The position numbers and the translations under genes are program-made. DNA of 33,555 nucleotides from Clostridia bacterium (lineage in GTDB: Bacteria; Bacillota; Clostridia; Christensenellales; CAG-1252): assembly GCA_017615495.1 (NCBI GenBank), contig JAGAAA010000058.1, positions 1-33,555 on the forward strand, in the 5' to 3' direction. Under the pieces are notes generated by a model. That model was given only the letters and a program-made list of their open reading frames with translations. It did no database searches and had not been told where the DNA came from. Each line of letters opens with the position of its first letter. The stretch's first letter is position 1. Below are positions 2,339-25,433 of the stretch, one piece after another.

Positions 2339-3109
2339 ATGGGAAAAACTTTTGACAAGGCGGGAACCTCCCTTTTGTTCCTGCTGCTTTGTTTTTTGTT
2401 CTTTTTTCACGTGACGAAATCACCGTTTGTCAGCACGGTCGCCGCCTTTCTTCTGCTTGCCACCCTGCTCTTGTTTTTGCGGCTGATACGCCCCCGTTCC
2501 CCCAAAGATCTTTTGTCAAAACGCAACTTTATCCGCTACGTTTTGCTAAACGGCAACGGCGTGCTCAAAGCCACTGTGGAAAACTCTCTTTCGGACAAAG
2601 CAGAAGCGGATAGCGTCGGCGAGCACACACTCCTTTCTTACGGTGACAAAAAGATACTCGTATACTACGCGTACAAGTTCGGCAGTCTTTCGGAAGAGGA
2701 CGTCGCCAAGAGTTTTCGCATAGCGAAAAAATGCGGCGCGGAGAAAATTTACGCCTTGACCAACCATTTGGACCGGAAGGCGATGGCGGTGGCGGAATAT
2801 ATCCCGCAAAGTTTCAGCGTGATCAACGCGACGACGCTATATAAGTTTTTGCTCAAAAAGGGGCTTATTCCAAAAAAAGAAGCCTTGCGGAGAAAAAGCG
2901 GCAAGGCGTTTGACTTTTTAAAAACCGTTTTGAAATCGGAAAACGCAAAATATTACGTTTGGGCGGGGCTCACCACTGCCCTGCTTGCGCTGTTTACGCC
3001 CATCACTACGTATTACGTGGCGTTTGCCTTCCTCAACCTCGCTCTTGCCGTCGCCACCATCTTTTTGAGTGAGCGCGGCGACGGAGAAAACGGGCTGTTC
3101 AGAGAGTGA
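2339..3109 (+). CDS. Hypothetical 4-TM membrane protein with a central soluble domain, possibly a degenerate Mrr/PD-(D/E)xK-like fold
   Basis: 256-aa ORF. Two N-terminal hydrophobic segments are LLFLLLCFLFFFHV and VAAFLLLATLLLFLRLI. Two C-terminal ones are YYVWAGLTTALLALFTPI and YYVAFAFLNLALAVATIFL. The central stretch GDKKILVYYAYKFGSLSEEDVAKSFRIAKKCGAEKIYALTNHLDRKA matches the Mrr_cat spacing pattern only loosely. Confidence 0.65.
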   Translation: MGKTFDKAGTSLLFLLLCFLFFFHVTKSPFVSTVAAFLLLATLLLFLRLIRPRSPKDLLSKRNFIRYVLLNGNGVLKATVENSLSDKAEADSVGEHTLLSYGDKKILVYYAYKFGSLSEEDVAKSFRIAKKCGAEKIYALTNHLDRKAMAVAEYIPQSFSVINATTLYKFLLKKGLIPKKEALRRKSGKAFDFLKTVLKSENAKYYVWAGLTTALLALFTPITTYYVAFAFLNLALAVATIFLSERGDGENGLFRE

Positions 3110-9743: not shown

Positions 9744-10827
9744 TTTTTTCTCCTTGATCAGAAGGTCCGTCCTCGGACGCTTCCGTTACGTTATTTGACA
9801 AAGCCGACGTTTCGGCAAGCGCAGTTGCGCCCTCTTCCGTCTCCGCGGCTTGCTCCGTTTTCTTTTTGTTGGCGCGGCCGAAGGTGAGTTTATCGATGAT
9901 CTTCATAATGAAGTTTTCGATTTTTTCGCTGTACTTTATCGTAAGGATAAACAGCACCACCACCGCCACGATGATCACCGCCCATAACAGCAGCCACCAC
10001 CCGTAAAAGGGGATGGAAACCACGCCTTTTGCGATCAATATCGTCGTCAGCACCCCGATCGTACGGCTAAACACCTGCAAAAGGAAGAAGCCCACGTACG
10101 TGTAATCGGTCATACCGGCGAGAATGCAGAGGAAATCATCCGGGAAAAACGGGAACAAAAACATATAAAACAGCACGATCTTGTCGCGCCCTTTGGTCAT
10201 GTTCTTGTACTTTTTGATCGTTTTCTCCCCCACCAGCCAATTGGCGAAACGCACGCCGAACACTCTGCCGAGAAAAAACGCGAACATTGAGCCCGCAACC
10301 AGCCCGATGACCGTCAGATACAGCGGTTTCCATATCCCATCAAAGAGGATAGCGCCCGCCGTCGTGGTAATGGTGCTGGGGATGGGAATGACGGTAACTT
10401 GCAAAAAGTTTGCCGCCACGAAGATCACTTCCGCCACGCCGCCCGAATTGTTTATGTAATTTACGACGTCGTCCGCCGAATTGATGGAGGACATAAACCC
10501 GCTGCGATGCAGAGCGAAGTAAACCACGAGGAAGATCGCGCCGATGTAAAAGGTGGTGACGGAAAGCTTAAACGCCGTTTCCCACCCTTTAAACAAAGCG
10601 GTAAAAGCAAGAGCCGCAACCCCTACGATGGCGACGAAGACGATGGAAAGCACCATAATGGACAAATACGGGTAAGAAAGTGCAAGGAAAGTTGTGGTGA
10701 CCAGCACCGCAAACACGCAAACGAGAAAGCGTATTACTCTCTTTTTGTTCCAAACAGACTTTTTCTTGCCCGACTCCGGAATGGCGCCCTGCTCTTCCGC
10801 CCGGGTACGTAATTCCTTTTCTTCCAT
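9733..10827 (-). CDS. TVP38/TMEM64 (DedA-related, SNARE-associated) family membrane protein with extra N-terminal TM segments and an acidic C-terminal tail
   Basis: FLQVTVIPIPSTITTTAGAILFD...VAGSMFAFFLGRVFG...FPFFPDDFLCILAGMT matches the TVP38/YdjX-type core. The start codon shares one nt with the upstream stop (TAATG at 10825-10829). Confidence 0.8.
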   Translation of the reverse strand: MEEKELRTRAEEQGAIPESGKKKSVWNKKRVIRFLVCVFAVLVTTTFLALSYPYLSIMVLSIVFVAIVGVAALAFTALFKGWETAFKLSVTTFYIGAIFLVVYFALHRSGFMSSINSADDVVNYINNSGGVAEVIFVAANFLQVTVIPIPSTITTTAGAILFDGIWKPLYLTVIGLVAGSMFAFFLGRVFGVRFANWLVGEKTIKKYKNMTKGRDKIVLFYMFLFPFFPDDFLCILAGMTDYTYVGFFLLQVFSRTIGVLTTILIAKGVVSIPFYGWWLLLWAVIIVAVVVLFILTIKYSEKIENFIMKIIDKLTFGRANKKKTEQAAETEEGATALAETSALSNNVTEASEDGPSDQGEKNVH

Positions 10828-12059
10828 TATTTCTCCGCGCGACTTTGCGACTCTTTACGAGCGATCTCGTCGCAACGATTGTTCATTTCGTCGTCCGAAT
10901 GACCTTTCACCTTGATAAAGCGAACGTCGTGCGCCGCAAGCAAGTTGACAAGTTTTTTCCACAAATCGACGTTTTTGACGTCCGCCCAACGACGCGCCTG
11001 CCAGTTTTTGAGCCAATCGTTGTTGACGGCGTTGACCACGTAGGCGGAATCGCTGTGTACTTCAATGACGCAACGCGGCTTTTTGATGGATTCCAAACCA
11101 CTGATGACCGCCATCAGTTCCATACGGTTGTTTGTGGTGCTGTCCTCACCGCCGCTGACCACCTTTTCCACATCGCCGAAGGTCAGGATGGCGCAGTATC
11201 CGCCCGGACCGGGGTTGCCGCTGCAAGCGCCGTCCGTATACATCTTTACGGCGGTTTGCGAACCGGGATTGCTCATCTCCACCGAACGCGCGCGACAACG
11301 GTCAACGCCTTCCGCGATGGTCTCCTCCAAGCCCGCCAATCTGTAATATGCCACGGCTTGAATGGTGGTGCCGCCCTTACTGCAAACGGCGTCGATCAAA
11401 TCGTCTATCTTCTTATCGGAATTGCCTATCATGCGAGCGCCGCCGATCAAGGTCGCCAGCGTAAGCTTTTTTGCTTCCTCAAAGTTCAAGCCGCCGTTCA
11501 TTCCGCCTTTGATCATGCCCTGCGCGAACATATACGCATAGGCGGGACCGCTGCCGCTGACCGAGGTCACGGCGTCAAACTTCTTTTCCTCAAGCTCAAT
11601 GATCTCGCCCAAAGCGGAAAATACCGCAAGCGGAAACTCCTTTTCTTCCTCGTCGTAGCCGCAAAAGCAAAGCGCGCTCATACCGCTGCCGATCATACAC
11701 GGGGTGTTGGGCATAACGCGACAGATCTTTTTCGCGCCGAGTTTTTCCTTCAACGTGGCGACGGTAACGCCAGCCATAATGGAGATCACTTTGGGCGCAA
11801 AACCTTGCTTAAGTTCCGCCGCGATATCGGGGAAACTTTGCGGTTTTACGGCAAAAAGCAAGTACTCAACGCTCTTTGACAAAAGCACGTTGTCCTTCGT
11901 TACGGCAACGCCAAGTTCCTTTGCCTGCGCGAGTTTTTCATCCGACAGATCACTGACGATGATCTCCTGCGGCTCCAGGACGCCGTTTGTCAAAATTCCT
12001 TTTGTGATGGCGGAGGACATGTTCCCCGCGCCGACGATGCCAAGTTTGTATTTATCCAT
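10827..12059 (-). CDS. proC: In-frame fusion: pyrroline-5-carboxylate reductase ProC (about 11270-12059) plus RNase HI (about 10827-11243)
   Basis: ProC part: MDKYKLGIVGAGNMSSAI...RVMPNTPCMIGSG...SGSGPAYAYMF...VCSKGGTTI...RSVEMS. An 8-10 aa linker follows. RNase HI part: VKMYTDGACSGNPGPGGY...TNNRMELMA...VHSDSAYV...VKGHSDDEMNNRCDEIA, with all DEDD/H catalytic positions present. No stop codon lies between the two parts. Confidence 0.85.
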   Translation of the reverse strand: MDKYKLGIVGAGNMSSAITKGILTNGVLEPQEIIVSDLSDEKLAQAKELGVAVTKDNVLLSKSVEYLLFAVKPQSFPDIAAELKQGFAPKVISIMAGVTVATLKEKLGAKKICRVMPNTPCMIGSGMSALCFCGYDEEEKEFPLAVFSALGEIIELEEKKFDAVTSVSGSGPAYAYMFAQGMIKGGMNGGLNFEEAKKLTLATLIGGARMIGNSDKKIDDLIDAVCSKGGTTIQAVAYYRLAGLEETIAEGVDRCRARSVEMSNPGSQTAVKMYTDGACSGNPGPGGYCAILTFGDVEKVVSGGEDSTTNNRMELMAVISGLESIKKPRCVIEVHSDSAYVVNAVNNDWLKNWQARRWADVKNVDLWKKLVNLLAAHDVRFIKVKGHSDDEMNNRCDEIARKESQSRAEK

Positions 12060-12068
12060 AAAAATCGA

Positions 12069-12097
12069 TTGACTTAGCTCCTTATATATTTTATAAT
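12069..12097 (+). promoter_or_regulatory. Consensus sigma-A promoter for tRNA-Trp
   Basis: TTGACT (12069-12074) - 17 nt - TATAAT (12092-12097). It ends 15 nt upstream of the mature tRNA 5' end. Confidence 0.6.
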
Positions 12098-12112: not shown

Positions 12113-12187
12113 AGGGGAGTGGCTCAATGGTAGAGCAGCGGTCTCCAAAACCGCTGGTTGCGTGTTCGAATCGCGTCTCCCCTGCCA
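12113..12187 (+). tRNA. trnW: tRNA-Trp (anticodon CCA), with encoded 3' CCA
   Basis: Cloverleaf read by eye. Acceptor AGGGGAG/CTCCCCT. D arm GCTC-AATGGTA-GAGC. Anticodon arm GCGGT-CTCCAAA-ACCGC (anticodon CCA). T arm GCGTG-TTCGAAT-CGCGT. Discriminator G, then CCA. Confidence 0.95.
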
Positions 12188-12191
12188 AGTT

Positions 12192-12219
12192 GCCTTGCTT
12201 TCGCAAGGCTTCTTTTTTT
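12192..12219 (+). terminator. Rho-independent terminator of tRNA-Trp
   Basis: GCCTTGC (12192-12198) - TTTC - GCAAGGC (12203-12209), followed by TTCTTTTTTT. Confidence 0.8.
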
Positions 12220-12336
12220 GCTTTTACGCGATTCTCCACGCAACCTTGTGTCTCCTTACGGATCCACGTTGCATGTGACGTTCGCAAATCGAATGCAAGC
12301 ATTCTTGCTCACTATTCCGTCGCTTCGCTCCTCGCG

Positions 12337-12410
12337 ATCACGTCTCCCCTGCCAAGTTGCCTTGCTTTCGCAAGGCTTCTTTTTTTTGTTATACGCGATT
12401 CTCCACGCAA
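12337..12410 (+). repeat. Second copy of a 74-bp direct repeat (first copy 12170-12243): last 18 nt of tRNA-Trp, its terminator and 24 nt downstream
   Basis: Ungapped comparison of 12170-12243 with 12337-12410 gives 70/74 identical positions at a period of 167 bp. Copy 2 carries ATCACGTCTCCCCTGCCA but has no matching 5' tRNA half upstream, so it is a tRNA 3' fragment and not a gene. Confidence 0.85.
12359..12387 (+). terminator. Duplicated terminator hairpin (tandem second terminator on the plus strand)
   Basis: Same GCCTTGC-TTTC-GCAAGGC hairpin (12359-12376), followed by TTC plus T8. Confidence 0.6.
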
Positions 12411-12514
12411 TTCATTGCGTCTTCCTCAAAATCCCGTTATGCGCCAGCATAAGTCACAAAGTTTTTCACTCTGGCGACGACGAAGAAAGGGGTAGAGACG
12501 AGCGCGCTCCGAGC

Positions 12515-12555
12515 CGCCAAGTAGGCGCGTACTAAGTGTACGTAACTGCTTGGCG
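12515..12555. repeat. Conserved hairpin element, copy 1 (in the rny 3' region)
   Basis: CGCCAAGTAG-GC-G-CGTAC-TAAGT-GTACG-T-AA-CTGCTTGGCG. The core 12523-12549 is 24/27 identical to 23261-23287. There is no adjacent U-run on either strand. Confidence 0.6.
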
Positions 12556-12598
12556 ACGAGGTCGTTAGCGAAGTATATGCCCTTTTATACGTCGACGC

Positions 12599-14188
12599 CT
12601 ACTTGGCGTATTCTACGCTGCGAAGCTCGCGTATAACGCTGACTTTGATTTGACCGGGATACTCAAGCTCGTTTTCAAGCGTCTTGGCGATCTCCTTAGC
12701 GATGAAGTAGGTCTTGCTGTCGTCCACCTTTTCGGGCTTGACCATAACTCTGATCTCACGGCCTGCCTGGATGGCGAAGGACTGTTCAACGCCCTCAAAG
12801 GAATTGGCGATCTTTTCAATGTTTTCAAGCCTCTTGACGTAGTTTTCAAGCGACTCTCTGCGTGCGCCGGGACGCGCGCCGCTGATGGCGTCCGCCGCTT
12901 GCACGATGACCGCTTCCACCGTCTTGGCTTCCACGTCGCCGTGGTGCGCCGCAATGGCGTGGATGACCGCTTCGCTTTCTTTGAACTTCTTGGCGAGCTC
13001 CACACCGATGGCAACGTGCGTACCCTCTACTTCGTGGTCTACCGCCTTACCGATATCGTGAAGCAAGCCCGCGCGCTTTGCGATCTTGACGTCCGCGCCG
13101 ATCTCCGCCGCAAGGATGCCCGCAAGGTGCGAAACCTCAATGGAATGCTTCAACACGTTTTGACCGTAACTCGTTCTGAACTTCAAACGACCGAGGATCT
13201 TAACAAGTTCGGGATGTAAGCCGTAAACCGCAACTTCGAAGGCGGCTTCTTCGCCGGCGTCCTTCATCTGGTTGTCGATCTCGTTTTTGACCTTCTCCAC
13301 GGTCTCTTCGATACGGGCGGGATGGATCCTGCCGTCGCTCATAAGCTTTTCAAGCGCTACGCGACCGATCTCCCTTCTGACCGGATCGAACGCGGAGATG
13401 GTGACCACGTCCGGGGTGTCGTCGATAATGACGTCAACGCCGGTGGCGTTTTCAAAGGCGCGGATGTTACGACCCACACGTCCGATGATCCTGCCCTTCA
13501 TTTCATCGTTGGGAAGGGGTACCACGGAAACCGCGATCTCACTTGCGTGATCGGTGGCGCATCTTTGCACCGCCATCGTAACGAGCTCACGCGCTTTTGC
13601 CTCGGCGTTTTCCTTGGCTTCCGCCTCGATCTCCTTTGCCATTTGCACGGCGTCGCGCTTGGCGTCGTCGAGCATGTTTTCAAGGAGCTCGTTTTTGGCT
13701 TCGTCGCGCGACATACCGGAAACCTTTTCAAGTTCCACAAGCATTTTGTTGTGCGATTCCGCAACTTCGTTTTCTTTGCGGACGATGTCCTGCTCCCTGA
13801 CGTTCAAAGCCGCTTGGGCGTTTTCCACGTCGGTCAAGCGCCTATCAAGGGTGTCTTCTTTTCTGGTAAGAGCTTCTTCTCTTGCCGCGACGCGTTGCTC
13901 GAGTTTTTGCACCTCGGCGCGTCTTTCGCGCACTTCCCTATCCACCTCCGTGCGAAGTCTGTGTTGTTCTTCCTTCGCCTCGATCAAGGCTTCTTTGCGC
14001 ATTGACTTAGCTTCTTGTCTGCTGTCCTCCAATATTCTTGCCGCTTCCGCTTGAGCGTTGCCTAATTTCTTGTCGATCACGAATTTGTATACGACGATGC
14101 CGACCGCCGCGCCGATGATCAGCGCGACCACACCGGAAATTACGCCAACAACTGCGGAAGAAACACTCAATAAATTGCCAAATATCAT
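12599..14188 (-). CDS. rny: Ribonuclease Y
   Basis: N-terminal TM anchor, long coiled coil, KH domain ([15 protein letters not shown]) and HD domain (LLHDIGKA...AAHHGD). An AGGAGG SD lies 9 nt upstream of the ATG at 14186-14188. Confidence 0.97.
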
Positions 14189-23178: not shown

Positions 23179-23247
23179 CGTCGGCAAAGCCGAACGACGT
23201 TGCGCCCCCAGCGAGCGCGGAGAAGGGTTGCAGATGCGCGACTCTAC

Positions 23248-23298
23248 AAAAAAAATCCGCAGGCGCGTACTCCTTGTACGTAACTGCGGAATTTTTTT
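23248..23298. terminator. Bidirectional rho-independent terminator shared by the deacetylase gene (+) and pnp (-); carries conserved hairpin element copy 2
   Basis: A8 (23248-23255) - TCCGCAG-GC-G-CGTAC-TCCTT-GTACG-T-AA-CTGCGGA - A - T7 (23292-23298). A U-run follows the hairpin on both strands. Confidence 0.8.
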
Positions 23299-23336
23299 GT
23301 TAGTAACAAAGCAGATGCGCCCTTATACGCGCTCGC

Positions 23337-25433
23337 TTATTCGGCCTTCTCCAGAATCTCCATCAAACGCAAATCAATGCGCTTCTTCTCGTCGATCTTG
23401 ATAACCTTAACCCTGACAAGGTCGCCGATGTTGACAACGTCCTCGACCTTCTCCACTCTCTCGCTGGAAAGCTTGGAAATATGGATCATGCCGTCCTTGC
23501 CCGGAGCGATCTCAACAAACGCGCCGATGGGGATGATGCGAGCAACTCTACCTTCGTACACGTCGCCCTTTTCGGGGTCTTTGCAGATGGCGTCGATGAT
23601 CTTCTTAGCCTTATCCGCGCTTGCGCTATCCGGGCTGGCGATGAAGACGATGTTGTCGTCGCTGATGTCGATCTTTACGCCGGTATCTTCGATGATCTTG
23701 TTGATGGTCTTACCGCCGCTGCCGATGACTTCACGCACCTTATCGGGGTCGATCGGGAAGGAGATGATCTTGGGAGCGAACTTGGAAAGTTCCTTACGCG
23801 GTTCGGGAAGAACGGCGAGCATCTTGCCAAGAATGAATTCCCTGCCCTCTTTCGCCTGAGCGAGAGCGGTGCGGAGGATCTGCTCATCGATGCCCTTGAT
23901 CTTGATATCCATCTGAATAGCGGTGATACCTTCTCTGGTACCTGCCACTTTGAAGTCCATATCGCCGAGGAAGTCCTCAAGTCCCTGGATGTCGCTCATG
24001 ACTGCGACTTTGCCGCTTTCAACGTCCTTGATGAGGCCCATTGCAATACCGGCAACGGGTGCCTTGATGGGCACGCCCGCATCCATAAGAGCAAGGGTGC
24101 TACCGCAGATACTTGCCTGCGAAGTGGAGCCGTTGGAGCTCAAGATCTCGGAAACCGTGCGGATGGCGTAGGGGAAATCCTGCTCGCTGGGGAGCACAGG
24201 CTCCAAAGCCCTTTCCGCAAGAGCGCCGTGACCGATCTCACGTCTGCCCGGGCTCTTAAGCTGACGGGCTTCGCCCGTGCTGTACGGGGGCATGTTGTAG
24301 TGGTGCATATATCTCTTGAACACGTCGTCGTCCAAGCTCTCAAGCTTTTGCGCCTCGCTGATGGTGCCGAGGGTACAAGTGGTAAGAGCCTGCGTGGAAC
24401 CACGGGTGAAAACACCGGTGCCGTGCACGCGGGGCATCACGCCGACTTCGCACCAGATAGGACGGATCTCCTTAAGAGTTCTGCCATCGGGACGCACGCC
24501 GTCGTTGATGATCTTGGAACGAACTTTTTCCTTCTTCAAAGCGTACATCGCGTCGAAGATCTCCCTCTTGCAGTTGGGGAAGATCTCGGCAAAGTGCTCT
24601 TGCACGTCCTTGTCGAGGTCATCTTCCAAAGCTTGACGCTCGTACCTGTCAAAATGGGTAAGGACGGCGTCCATCTTCTCGGAAGCGTACTCTCTGACCG
24701 CCTGAGAGATCTCAGCGGGAACGGAATACATATCCACCTTGGTGGTCTTGGGCTTGCCGCAATCCGCAGCGATGCTTTCAATGAAAGCAACGATCTTTTT
24801 GATCTCCTCGTGACCGAAGAGGATCGCGCCGAGCATTTCTTCCTCGGTGATCTCGCTGGCGCCGGCTTCGACCATCATAATGGCGTCCTTGGTGCCGGAC
24901 AAGGAAAGGTGCAACTTGCTCTTTTCCCTCTCGGCGGAATTGGGGTTGATAACGTACTTGCCATCAACGTAGCCGACGACGACCGAGCCGGTCGGGCCGC
25001 CCCACGGGATATCGGAGATCGAAAGCGCGATAGAGCTACCGATCATTGCGTAGACCTCGGGCGGAATGTCCGTATCCACACTCATTGCGGTACAAACGAC
25101 AGCAACGTCATTGAAAAGGCCCTTGGGGAAAAGCGGACGGATAGGTCTGTCGATCAAGCGGCTCACGAGGATCGCTTTATCGGAAGGACGACCTTCCCTC
25201 TTTTTGAACCCGCCGGGGATCTTGCCTACGGCATACATCTTCTCTTCGAAGTCAACTCCGAGGGGGAAGAAATCGATGCCGTCACGGGGCTGAGCCGCCA
25301 TCGTCACGTTGGTCAACACGGCGGTATCGCCGCACCTGACCAAGCAGGAACCGTTTGCCTGCTCGCAGTACGCGCCGACCTCGACGGAAACCTCTCTGCC
25401 ACCAATCATTGTCTTGTAAATCTTTCTTTCCAT
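23337..25433 (-). CDS. pnp: Polyribonucleotide nucleotidyltransferase (PNPase)
   Basis: Two RNase PH domains, a KH domain (GSGGKTINKIIE) and an S1 domain (GDVYEGRVARIIPIGAFVEI). An AGGAGG SD lies upstream of the ATG at 25431-25433. Confidence 0.98.
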   Translation of the reverse strand: MERKIYKTMIGGREVSVEVGAYCEQANGSCLVRCGDTAVLTNVTMAAQPRDGIDFFPLGVDFEEKMYAVGKIPGGFKKREGRPSDKAILVSRLIDRPIRPLFPKGLFNDVAVVCTAMSVDTDIPPEVYAMIGSSIALSISDIPWGGPTGSVVVGYVDGKYVINPNSAEREKSKLHLSLSGTKDAIMMVEAGASEITEEEMLGAILFGHEEIKKIVAFIESIAADCGKPKTTKVDMYSVPAEISQAVREYASEKMDAVLTHFDRYERQALEDDLDKDVQEHFAEIFPNCKREIFDAMYALKKEKVRSKIINDGVRPDGRTLKEIRPIWCEVGVMPRVHGTGVFTRGSTQALTTCTLGTISEAQKLESLDDDVFKRYMHHYNMPPYSTGEARQLKSPGRREIGHGALAERALEPVLPSEQDFPYAIRTVSEILSSNGSTSQASICGSTLALMDAGVPIKAPVAGIAMGLIKDVESGKVAVMSDIQGLEDFLGDMDFKVAGTREGITAIQMDIKIKGIDEQILRTALAQAKEGREFILGKMLAVLPEPRKELSKFAPKIISFPIDPDKVREVIGSGGKTINKIIEDTGVKIDISDDNIVFIASPDSASADKAKKIIDAICKDPEKGDVYEGRVARIIPIGAFVEIAPGKDGMIHISKLSSERVEKVEDVVNIGDLVRVKVIKIDEKKRIDLRLMEILEKAE

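Follow-up and report, generated by a model that had tools for sequence, protein, structure and literature searches.

Why do two genes of mRNA decay, more than ten kilobases apart, end in what looks like the same structured element? The question is raised by a stretch of 33,555 nucleotides (nt) from a Clostridia bacterium of the Christensenellales (contig JAGAAA010000058.1), called the window below, in which related intergenic segments follow the stop codons of rny and pnp, encoding RNase Y and PNPase. The original prediction placed these segments at 12497-12608 and 23205-23339 and proposed a 3'-untranslated region (3'-UTR) module shared by both genes, with the chance landing of a palindromic repeat as the alternative. 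That alternative comes close to what the evidence shows, except that the landing at gene ends is not a matter of chance. We consider it probable, though with restrained confidence, that the two segments are members of one mosaic, high-copy family of long-hairpin intergenic repeats that is selfish or REPIN-like, of the kind represented by repetitive extragenic palindromes (REPs), the bacterial interspersed mosaic elements (BIMEs) and REPINs related to them, and enterobacterial repetitive intergenic consensus (ERIC) sequences. The family is very abundant and apparently undescribed.

Both copies are best read on the + strand of the window, which is antisense to rny and pnp and corresponds to the "core" strand of the family. 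The core, AGGCGCGTACT-N3-TGTACGTAACTGC, lies on this strand at 12523-12549 and 23261-23287. These are the only two matches in the window at up to three mismatches, and none occurred in 100 shuffled versions of it. As originally described, the 24 specified bases are the same in both copies and only three loop bases differ (AAG in copy 1, CCT in copy 2). The two segments are real elements, but each proved to be one larger hairpin. Copy 1 is an imperfect long hairpin of 127 nt (12473-12599, + strand; fold of -65.5 kcal/mol, z -5.5) and copy 2 a long hairpin of 128 nt (23210-23337, + strand; -72.2 kcal/mol, z -7.5). From base to tip, both comprise a 10-bp outer stem that differs in sequence and is paired in each, a 3x3 AGA/AUA loop, a purine-rich helix, a variable inner stem and the apical hairpin GGCGCGUAC-N5-GUACGUAAC. 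The outer stem is GGCGACGACG/CGTCGACGCC in copy 1 and AGCGAGCGCG/CGCGCTCGCT in copy 2, which also carries a GCAGAUGC/GCAGAUGC helix with tandem G·A. The stems closing the core are unlike in sequence and paired in both copies (CGCCAAGTAG/CTGCTTGGCG with one T·G, versus TCCGCAG/CTGCGGA), which bears out the compensatory change proposed around a conserved GC/AA internal loop. The apical module is an exact pattern match in either copy, reading GGCGCGTAC-TAAGT-GTACGTAAC at 12524-12546 and GGCGCGTAC-TCCTT-GTACGTAAC at 23262-23284 (both on the + strand). In copy 1 it consists of a 5-bp CGTAC/GTACG stem with an added G·U and the conserved GC/AA internal loop, closed by a G-C pair. Its columns are invariant in an alignment of 28 family sequences.

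Each hairpin ends within a stop codon, so the placement directly after both genes stands. The last base of copy 1 is the complement of the G in the rny TAG (12599-12601, - strand; open reading frame (ORF) 12599-14188 with Pfam domains RNase_Y_N/KH/HD), and the last base of copy 2 that of the final A in the pnp TAA (23337-23339, - strand; ORF 23337-25433). The identity of the pnp product follows from Pfam RNase_PH/PNPase/KH/S1 matches on the same protein in locus L001, which stems from another sample of the same species. ATACG, followed by 7 nt and the stop complement, is present in both copies as reported; GAGCGCG, on the other hand, had been taken for a shared distal flank, and the alignment places one occurrence in an outer-stem arm and the other in the interior, so that the two strings are not homologous. 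The rny and pnp copies fill the only two convergent junctions of the window that have any intergenic space. At the convergent gene pairs at 3109/3110 and 7485/7486, stop stands against stop with zero spacing and no room for a terminator or an element. The rny copy additionally holds a 13-nt perfect inverted repeat (12515-12527 / 12596-12608), in which CGCCAAGTAGGCG, spanning an inner-stem arm and the start of the apical module, is the reverse complement of the last rny codons, the TAG and the first outer-stem bases. It permits an alternative pairing that would sequester the stop codon and was seen in this copy alone (one of 42 tested). The idea it prompted, that the inner stem is copied from the target site, was rejected on the same count.

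The element is far from confined to this window. Species-representative genomes were scanned for GGCGCGTACNNNNNGTACGTAAC, and all family counts given here are lower bounds among the matches listed. The 23-nt apical motif occurs in at least 127 exact-core copies at at least 118 loci (numbered with the prefix L below) in at least 68 assemblies, with up to 10 exact-core copies per metagenome-assembled genome (MAG) among the listed matches. Most of these assemblies are Christensenella, Christensenellaceae or "Clostridia" MAGs from gut and rumen (Ructibacterium, Scatosoma, Stercoripulliclostridium and others). The same motifs flank copies in MAGs of Selenomonadales, Alistipes, Thiomicrospira/Francisella-like bacteria, Arenicella, Myxococcales, Bdellovibrionaceae and Rickettsiales, and the apical motif is common to at least five phyla. 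The family is thus expanded in Christensenellales and scattered in other phyla. Copies are about 100-145 nt long. A covariance model built from 28 of them (R1) added numerous diverged copies in 682 kb of fetched loci, where as many as four occur within 8 kb. In the window it recovered exactly the two copies, at 12465-12606 (122.7 bits on the + strand versus 29.7 on the - strand) and 23202-23344 (129 versus 42.5 bits); the two segments are homologous and structured. At least 20 copies are located at contig ends, the signature of an assembly-breaking repeat. The earlier statement that no known RNA family is involved also held: at the gathering threshold, Rfam 15 matched only tRNA-Trp in the whole window, relaxation to E<=10 yielded only chance-level matches far under threshold for both copies, and no match overlapped an element in 18 other copy-bearing loci. 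A literature search by sequence and keywords found no description of the core motif.

Sequence variation among the copies shows which strand carries the structure. In the 28-sequence alignment, double (compensatory) changes occur in 29 of the 38 pairs, and 94.4% of the cells are paired compared to 74% after shuffling and 26-50% with partners slid. The outer arms are inverted repeats that covary between copies and are fairly constant within one genome; the inner stem covaries freely, the apical hairpin is almost invariant and the non-Watson-Crick internal loops are conserved. G·U cells outnumber A·C cells by 115:13, and the complementary strand would pair in 84.7% of the cells only. Likewise, 96 of the 106 non-redundant copies fold more stably as the core strand (mean difference 12.6 kcal/mol, p = 3e-17), including copies 1 and 2 with -65.5 and -72.2 kcal/mol versus -52.9 and -65.6 kcal/mol for the mRNA-sense strand. 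Because G·U exceeds A·C and the core strand folds better, structural selection is assigned to the core strand: the structure is under selection on the strand complementary to the mRNA of the adjacent gene. Mutational strand biases known from transcription and replication would enrich G·U on the sense or leading strand, the reverse of the observation, and a mutational origin of the G·U excess was therefore rejected on reasoning and GC skew; the skew of the window puts the genes, not the core strand, on the leading strand, and the folded strand is the leading-strand template.

Abutment of a stop codon is the rule for the whole family. Viewed in gene sense, a long ORF ends 19-113 nt before the core in 94 of 124 copies, with a mode of 50-57 nt that corresponds to the hairpin base. 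When copies are oriented by the core strand, a convergent gene lies 3' of the element in 86 cases, against 14 of the other orientation. In about half of the copies the stop codon of this 3' gene lies a few bases from the hairpin base; at the opposite end, the distance to the next gene is typically 100-800 nt. The elements end as (stop)-(G)CGAGCGCG..., with TAA (57), TGA (21) and TAG (16) as stops and no frame preference in the stop-to-core distance (36/29/29). Some ORFs terminate inside the element's own conserved TATAA/TATAG loop. Polarity follows the gene and not replication, because the orientation matches the gene both where opposite-strand genes each have an oppositely oriented copy (L081, L022, L060) and where successive genes of a single operon each carry one (L020, L098). 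Two exceptions are a copy in sense orientation within an operon (L042) and a copy in the 16S-23S spacer of a gammaproteobacterial MAG (L110 753-883), located between two tRNA genes with its core strand rRNA-sense; the latter is among the few copies certain to be transcribed in core-strand orientation. Three coding explanations were rejected. A read-through or C-terminal extension ORF, considered since rny has more than 50 open codons after its TAG, is contradicted by the lack of frame preference and the use of all three stops, a selenocysteine or pyrrolysine recoding hairpin by the stop-codon usage, and a small + strand ORF (GGAGA...ATG resembling a ribosome-binding site and start) by the position of its ATG within the tandem-G·A helix, where it is not conserved.

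The genes concerned have little in common. Among the matches listed, 87 abutting proteins represent 177 Pfam families, none of which occurs in more than three proteins. They are mostly housekeeping proteins, including MetRS, CysRS, SecA, GyrB, phosphoglycerate mutase and YbaB. Housekeeping genes are also the neighbours in other phyla. Ordinary genes were all that Pfam detected among the abutting genes, the distant-phylum neighbours and the most recurrent ORF clusters, and a protein partner encoded nearby was rejected on these scans. The family is generic, without a link to gene function. One placement is seen more than once: ybaB, in the dnaX-ybaB operon, is followed by the element both in Scatosoma, a member of the Clostridia, and in Thiomicrospira/Francisella-like Gammaproteobacteria (L046 5970-5992, L102 2142-2164, L082 614-867), either fortuitously or because the site is a recurrent one.

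Close relatives differ from one another by the gain, loss, duplication and truncation of copies. Near-identical copies are present at separate loci of one genome in Stercoripulliclostridium, two Christensenellaceae sets, Ructibacterium and Myxococcales. Three Selenomonadales copies have outer arms and apical module in common, but their inner stems, which are flanked by A7/T7, are unrelated. In the second sample of the window species, an extra segment of about 80 nt distal to the pnp copy (L001 922-1010) contains a duplicated half-element (AGAGTCGCGCATCTGCAACCCTTCTCCGC), giving an intergenic region after pnp of 235 nt versus 158 nt and hence a length polymorphism at strain level. Solo 5' arms occur distal to an intact copy in many loci, and tandem units have periods of 100-230 nt. 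In some copies a second repeated hairpin module of about 45 nt (CACCCC...GGGGACCCCG) is nested just after GATGCGAGGC (L013 5299-5400, L117 1121-1680, also L051, L057, L091, L109 and L023); L117 comprises three such composite units in a tandem array with a 185-nt period. The possibility that the rny and pnp copies are the ends of one 10.8-kb mobile element was rejected, as they are direct and not inverted and the intervening genes represent conserved synteny.

These properties invite comparison with described repeats. RAYT is a Y1 HUH transposase whose gene is typically flanked by its REPs, and a REPIN consists of two inverted REPs. ERIC sequences (also called IRU) and Correia/NEMIS elements are imperfect palindromes of about 100-155 nt that are transcribed together with the genes beside them and can influence the ends and the stability of the mRNA. 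Most REPs lie downstream of ORFs, and the stop codon can come from the REP itself (PMC3733652), while REPIN hairpins show compensatory changes, tandem clusters and predicted folding as single-stranded DNA or mRNA (PMC3116915). The present family resembles the REP/BIME/REPIN group in its high copy number, its extragenic position, for the most part after ORFs and in gaps between unidirectional or convergent genes, its termini that may supply the stop codon, long hairpins whose spacer pairing is kept by compensatory change, tandem clusters and mosaic combination with other modules. It differs from that group as well: the GTAG/CGTC tag of REPs was not found in the family alignment, one hairpin with an apical module of its own makes up the unit in place of a doublet of 20-40-nt REPs, conservation is highest apically and not basally, orientation is coupled to the neighbouring gene, and the motif is common to several phyla whereas REP sequences are lineage-specific. 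With ERIC, Correia and NEMIS it shares length, imperfect palindromy and a transcribed intergenic location. Those elements, however, have terminal inverted repeats with a TA target duplication and occur in both orientations, whereas the family shows no duplication and 86% of one polarity; its sequences are unrelated to theirs, and its hosts are Clostridia and scattered phyla. The terminal inverted repeats plus target duplication of DDE-type miniature inverted-repeat transposable elements (Correia, ERIC, RUP) are not what the family displays, there being no direct repeat at the ends of its copies. The family is set apart from the described repeats because of its conserved apical module, its gene-coupled polarity and its structural selection opposite the mRNA.

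If the segments are indeed selfish or REPIN-like repeats, the element would spread or be renewed via a single-stranded form of the core strand, which a putative trans-encoded factor may recognise at the apical hairpin. Once in place, it would be co-transcribed with the upstream gene, its weaker-folding complement forming a 3'-end hairpin that could act as a U-tailed intrinsic terminator in the pnp copy and in about a quarter of the family overall. At rny and pnp, the element would accordingly contribute to ordinary 3'-end formation or stabilisation, with no shared feedback circuit.

Several observations weigh against this reading. No target-site duplication was found at the boundaries, either with near-identical copies within a genome or by comparing filled and empty sites, and no transposase, reverse transcriptase or integrase recurs among the 660 ORFs in the loci. 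A tblastn search of 1.06 Mb of copy-bearing loci for a RAYT or other Y1 transposase gave no match with two approximate query sequences (RAYT and IS200 TnpA), and no TnpA/TnpB-like ORFs were found in these loci. Copies were likewise not found in IMG/VR viral contigs, INPHARED phage records or plasmids, and a phage or plasmid origin was rejected on this basis. IS200/IS605 single-strand transposons have their folded strand on the lagging-strand template. The family departs from them, and from the related PATE elements and the TnpB omega/reRNA, as its folded strand is on the leading-strand template in the window and tracks gene polarity; to our knowledge, no known transposition mechanism explains this combination. 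In addition, the rny copy has no U tract, and a terminator role is therefore not general. Finally, the architecture of the rny copy is kept across relatives whose stems turned over completely (see below); added to the conservation of the non-canonical loops, this suggests selection by the host for a functional RNA no less than it suggests selfish spread.

The last point leads to the rival that survives best, a functional structured RNA expressed from the + strand. Copies would then be paralogous RNA genes kept by host selection and not mobile DNA. They would work at gene ends as a cis-antisense RNA or an insulator, or else as a protein-binding scaffold that continues 3' into antisense of the adjacent ORF as a "guide". 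This is possible, although we find it rather less probable than a selfish repeat. The strong covariation with its 9:1 excess of G·U over A·C on that strand, the conserved non-Watson-Crick motifs (AGA/AUA loop, tandem G·A, apical GC/AA), the apical motif in at least five phyla, the retained architecture after rny, the polarity tied to the neighbouring gene and not to replication, and the two loci in which the core strand is the transcribed strand (L110, L042) all speak for it. The search for expression, on the contrary, gave little. A + strand promoter was rejected as a feature of the family, as no positional signal was found at any fixed upstream distance and no promoter-like site before either window copy. 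Transcription from the tRNA-Trp promoter would meet two terminators before the rny copy. Because of these terminators and the missing promoter-like sites, + strand expression at the rny and pnp copies is unsupported. Copies inside operons would even require an antisense promoter within the operon, and truncated, tandem, mosaic and, within a genome, near-identical copies are typical of repeats and not of genes. The tRNA-Trp gene itself (12113-12187, + strand) has a near-consensus promoter-like site at 12069-12097 and a terminator at 12192-12209. Its last 18 nt or so, the terminator and about 30 further bases have a second copy 167 nt downstream (12170-12243 and 12337-12410, 95% identical), which looks like an att-site-like scar or a local duplication.

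A second rival starts from the pnp copy. The inner part of copy 2 (23248-23298, both strands), as read from the sequence, is A8-TCCGCAG-apical module-CTGCGGA-A-T7 and reads as a bidirectional intrinsic-terminator-like hairpin, with predicted tails of U8 for the pnp transcript and U7 for the convergent polysaccharide-deacetylase transcript. The family could accordingly consist of elaborated intrinsic terminators that arose where they now stand and are met repeatedly owing to convergence or local duplication, the conserved parts being accessory terminator or antiterminator signals. The A tract, GC-rich stem and T tract of this hairpin and of about a quarter of the family fit such a view, as do the position of copies at gene ends and convergent junctions and the fact that the A8-stem-T7 core stands in place of a plain bidirectional terminator in the sister species. 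T runs of at least six after the apical hairpin are also in excess in gene sense (18 of 106 copies versus 3 of 106 on the other strand). Nonetheless, we judge this explanation improbable. A usable gene-sense U tract is present in 18-26 of the 106 copies only and not in the rny copy, and an ordinary terminator has neither a conserved 23-nt loop insert nor some 40 nt of covarying, motif-bearing helix on each side. The outer two thirds of the hairpin would lie past the termination point and covary all the same, an identical 23-nt motif across phyla cannot come from convergence, and the structural asymmetry favours the wrong strand.

Integrons offer a third comparison. Their attC sites are located directly after or overlapping a stop codon, form imperfect palindromes conserved in structure more than in sequence and are functional when folded antisense to the ORF. 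The stop-codon placement, the 60-140-nt imperfect palindrome, the conservation of structure over sequence and the fold on the strand antisense to the upstream ORF would all suit a folded single-strand recombination site of this type, marking gene ends as exchangeable units. The neighbours, however, are core housekeeping genes in conserved synteny (pnp...ftsK...recA-rny) and not cassette arrays, no integrase recurs in the loci, the R/L boxes (RYYYAAC...GTTRRRY) are missing from the hairpin base, and the conserved part is apical and not basal. A site of the attC type is very doubtful on these grounds.

Relatives of the window species, fetched via RNase Y homologues (L129-L134), bear on the link with RNA decay. 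The window species (RNase Y identity 100%) has a full copy after both genes. In its sister species (L129, 92%), the copy after rny is without an outer stem and has a diverged core, and a plain bidirectional terminator stands 13 nt past the pnp TAA; the C-terminus of its PNPase is identical to that of the window, yet no copy follows. L130 (89%) has a copy after rny in which every stem is replaced and the loops are kept. L131 (87%) has none, and in both loci the fetched flank ends short of the pnp end. In L132-L134 (73-67%), ordinary terminators or hairpins and no copy follow rny; after pnp, L132 and L134 have no copy and the flank of L133 ends short. Within L130 (11725-12580), the intergenic region after rny is 990 nt long and holds at least one further half-element-like fragment (…CGCTCGTCTCTGCACCACTCTCCGCTGTCGG). 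The original prediction had named a search of the genome and relatives beforehand as its check, and the many copies adjoining functionally unrelated genes argue against an RNA-decay module. A dedicated 3'-UTR module coupling the expression of RNase Y and PNPase or placing it under feedback control, or a gene-specific 3'-UTR-derived small RNA, is scarcely credible: both copies of the window do follow RNA-decay genes and the rny copy is kept in two related species, but those sites are simply the only convergent junctions of the window with space, and the module is not supported because copies adjoin unrelated genes, vanish in relatives (after pnp already in the sister species, after rny at RNase Y identities of 87% and below) and have their selected structure on the strand opposite the mRNAs. 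The idea of a common control of RNase Y and PNPase should be dropped.

Elsewhere in the window, a 410-aa ORF (10827-12059, - strand) combines pyrroline-5-carboxylate reductase domains with a C-terminal RNase H; two separate adjacent genes are found in the more distant L134.

Beyond the repeat family that we favour, a broader notion deserves mention, namely that the family is a cross-phylum class of gene-end elements, functional as a single strand antisense to the upstream gene. We regard it as rather unlikely. Two forms may fit such a class: a structured antisense RNA with a conserved scaffold, extended on its 3' side by sequence complementary to the end of the ORF, or a folded-DNA site read by a putative conserved protein at the apical hairpin. 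If true, either form would amount to a polarity-aware system at stop codons or operon ends. Described repeat and transposon mechanisms do not explain the strict stop-codon placement, the structure selected opposite the mRNA or the apical motif in at least five phyla. Identification of a partner protein or of the expressed strand would tell apart a new mobilisation mechanism, a new antisense or terminator-associated RNA class and a REPIN-like domesticated system in Firmicutes. For the Christensenellales, a health-associated gut lineage in which the family is abundant, it is an element that breaks metagenome assemblies and shapes the 3' ends of many housekeeping genes.

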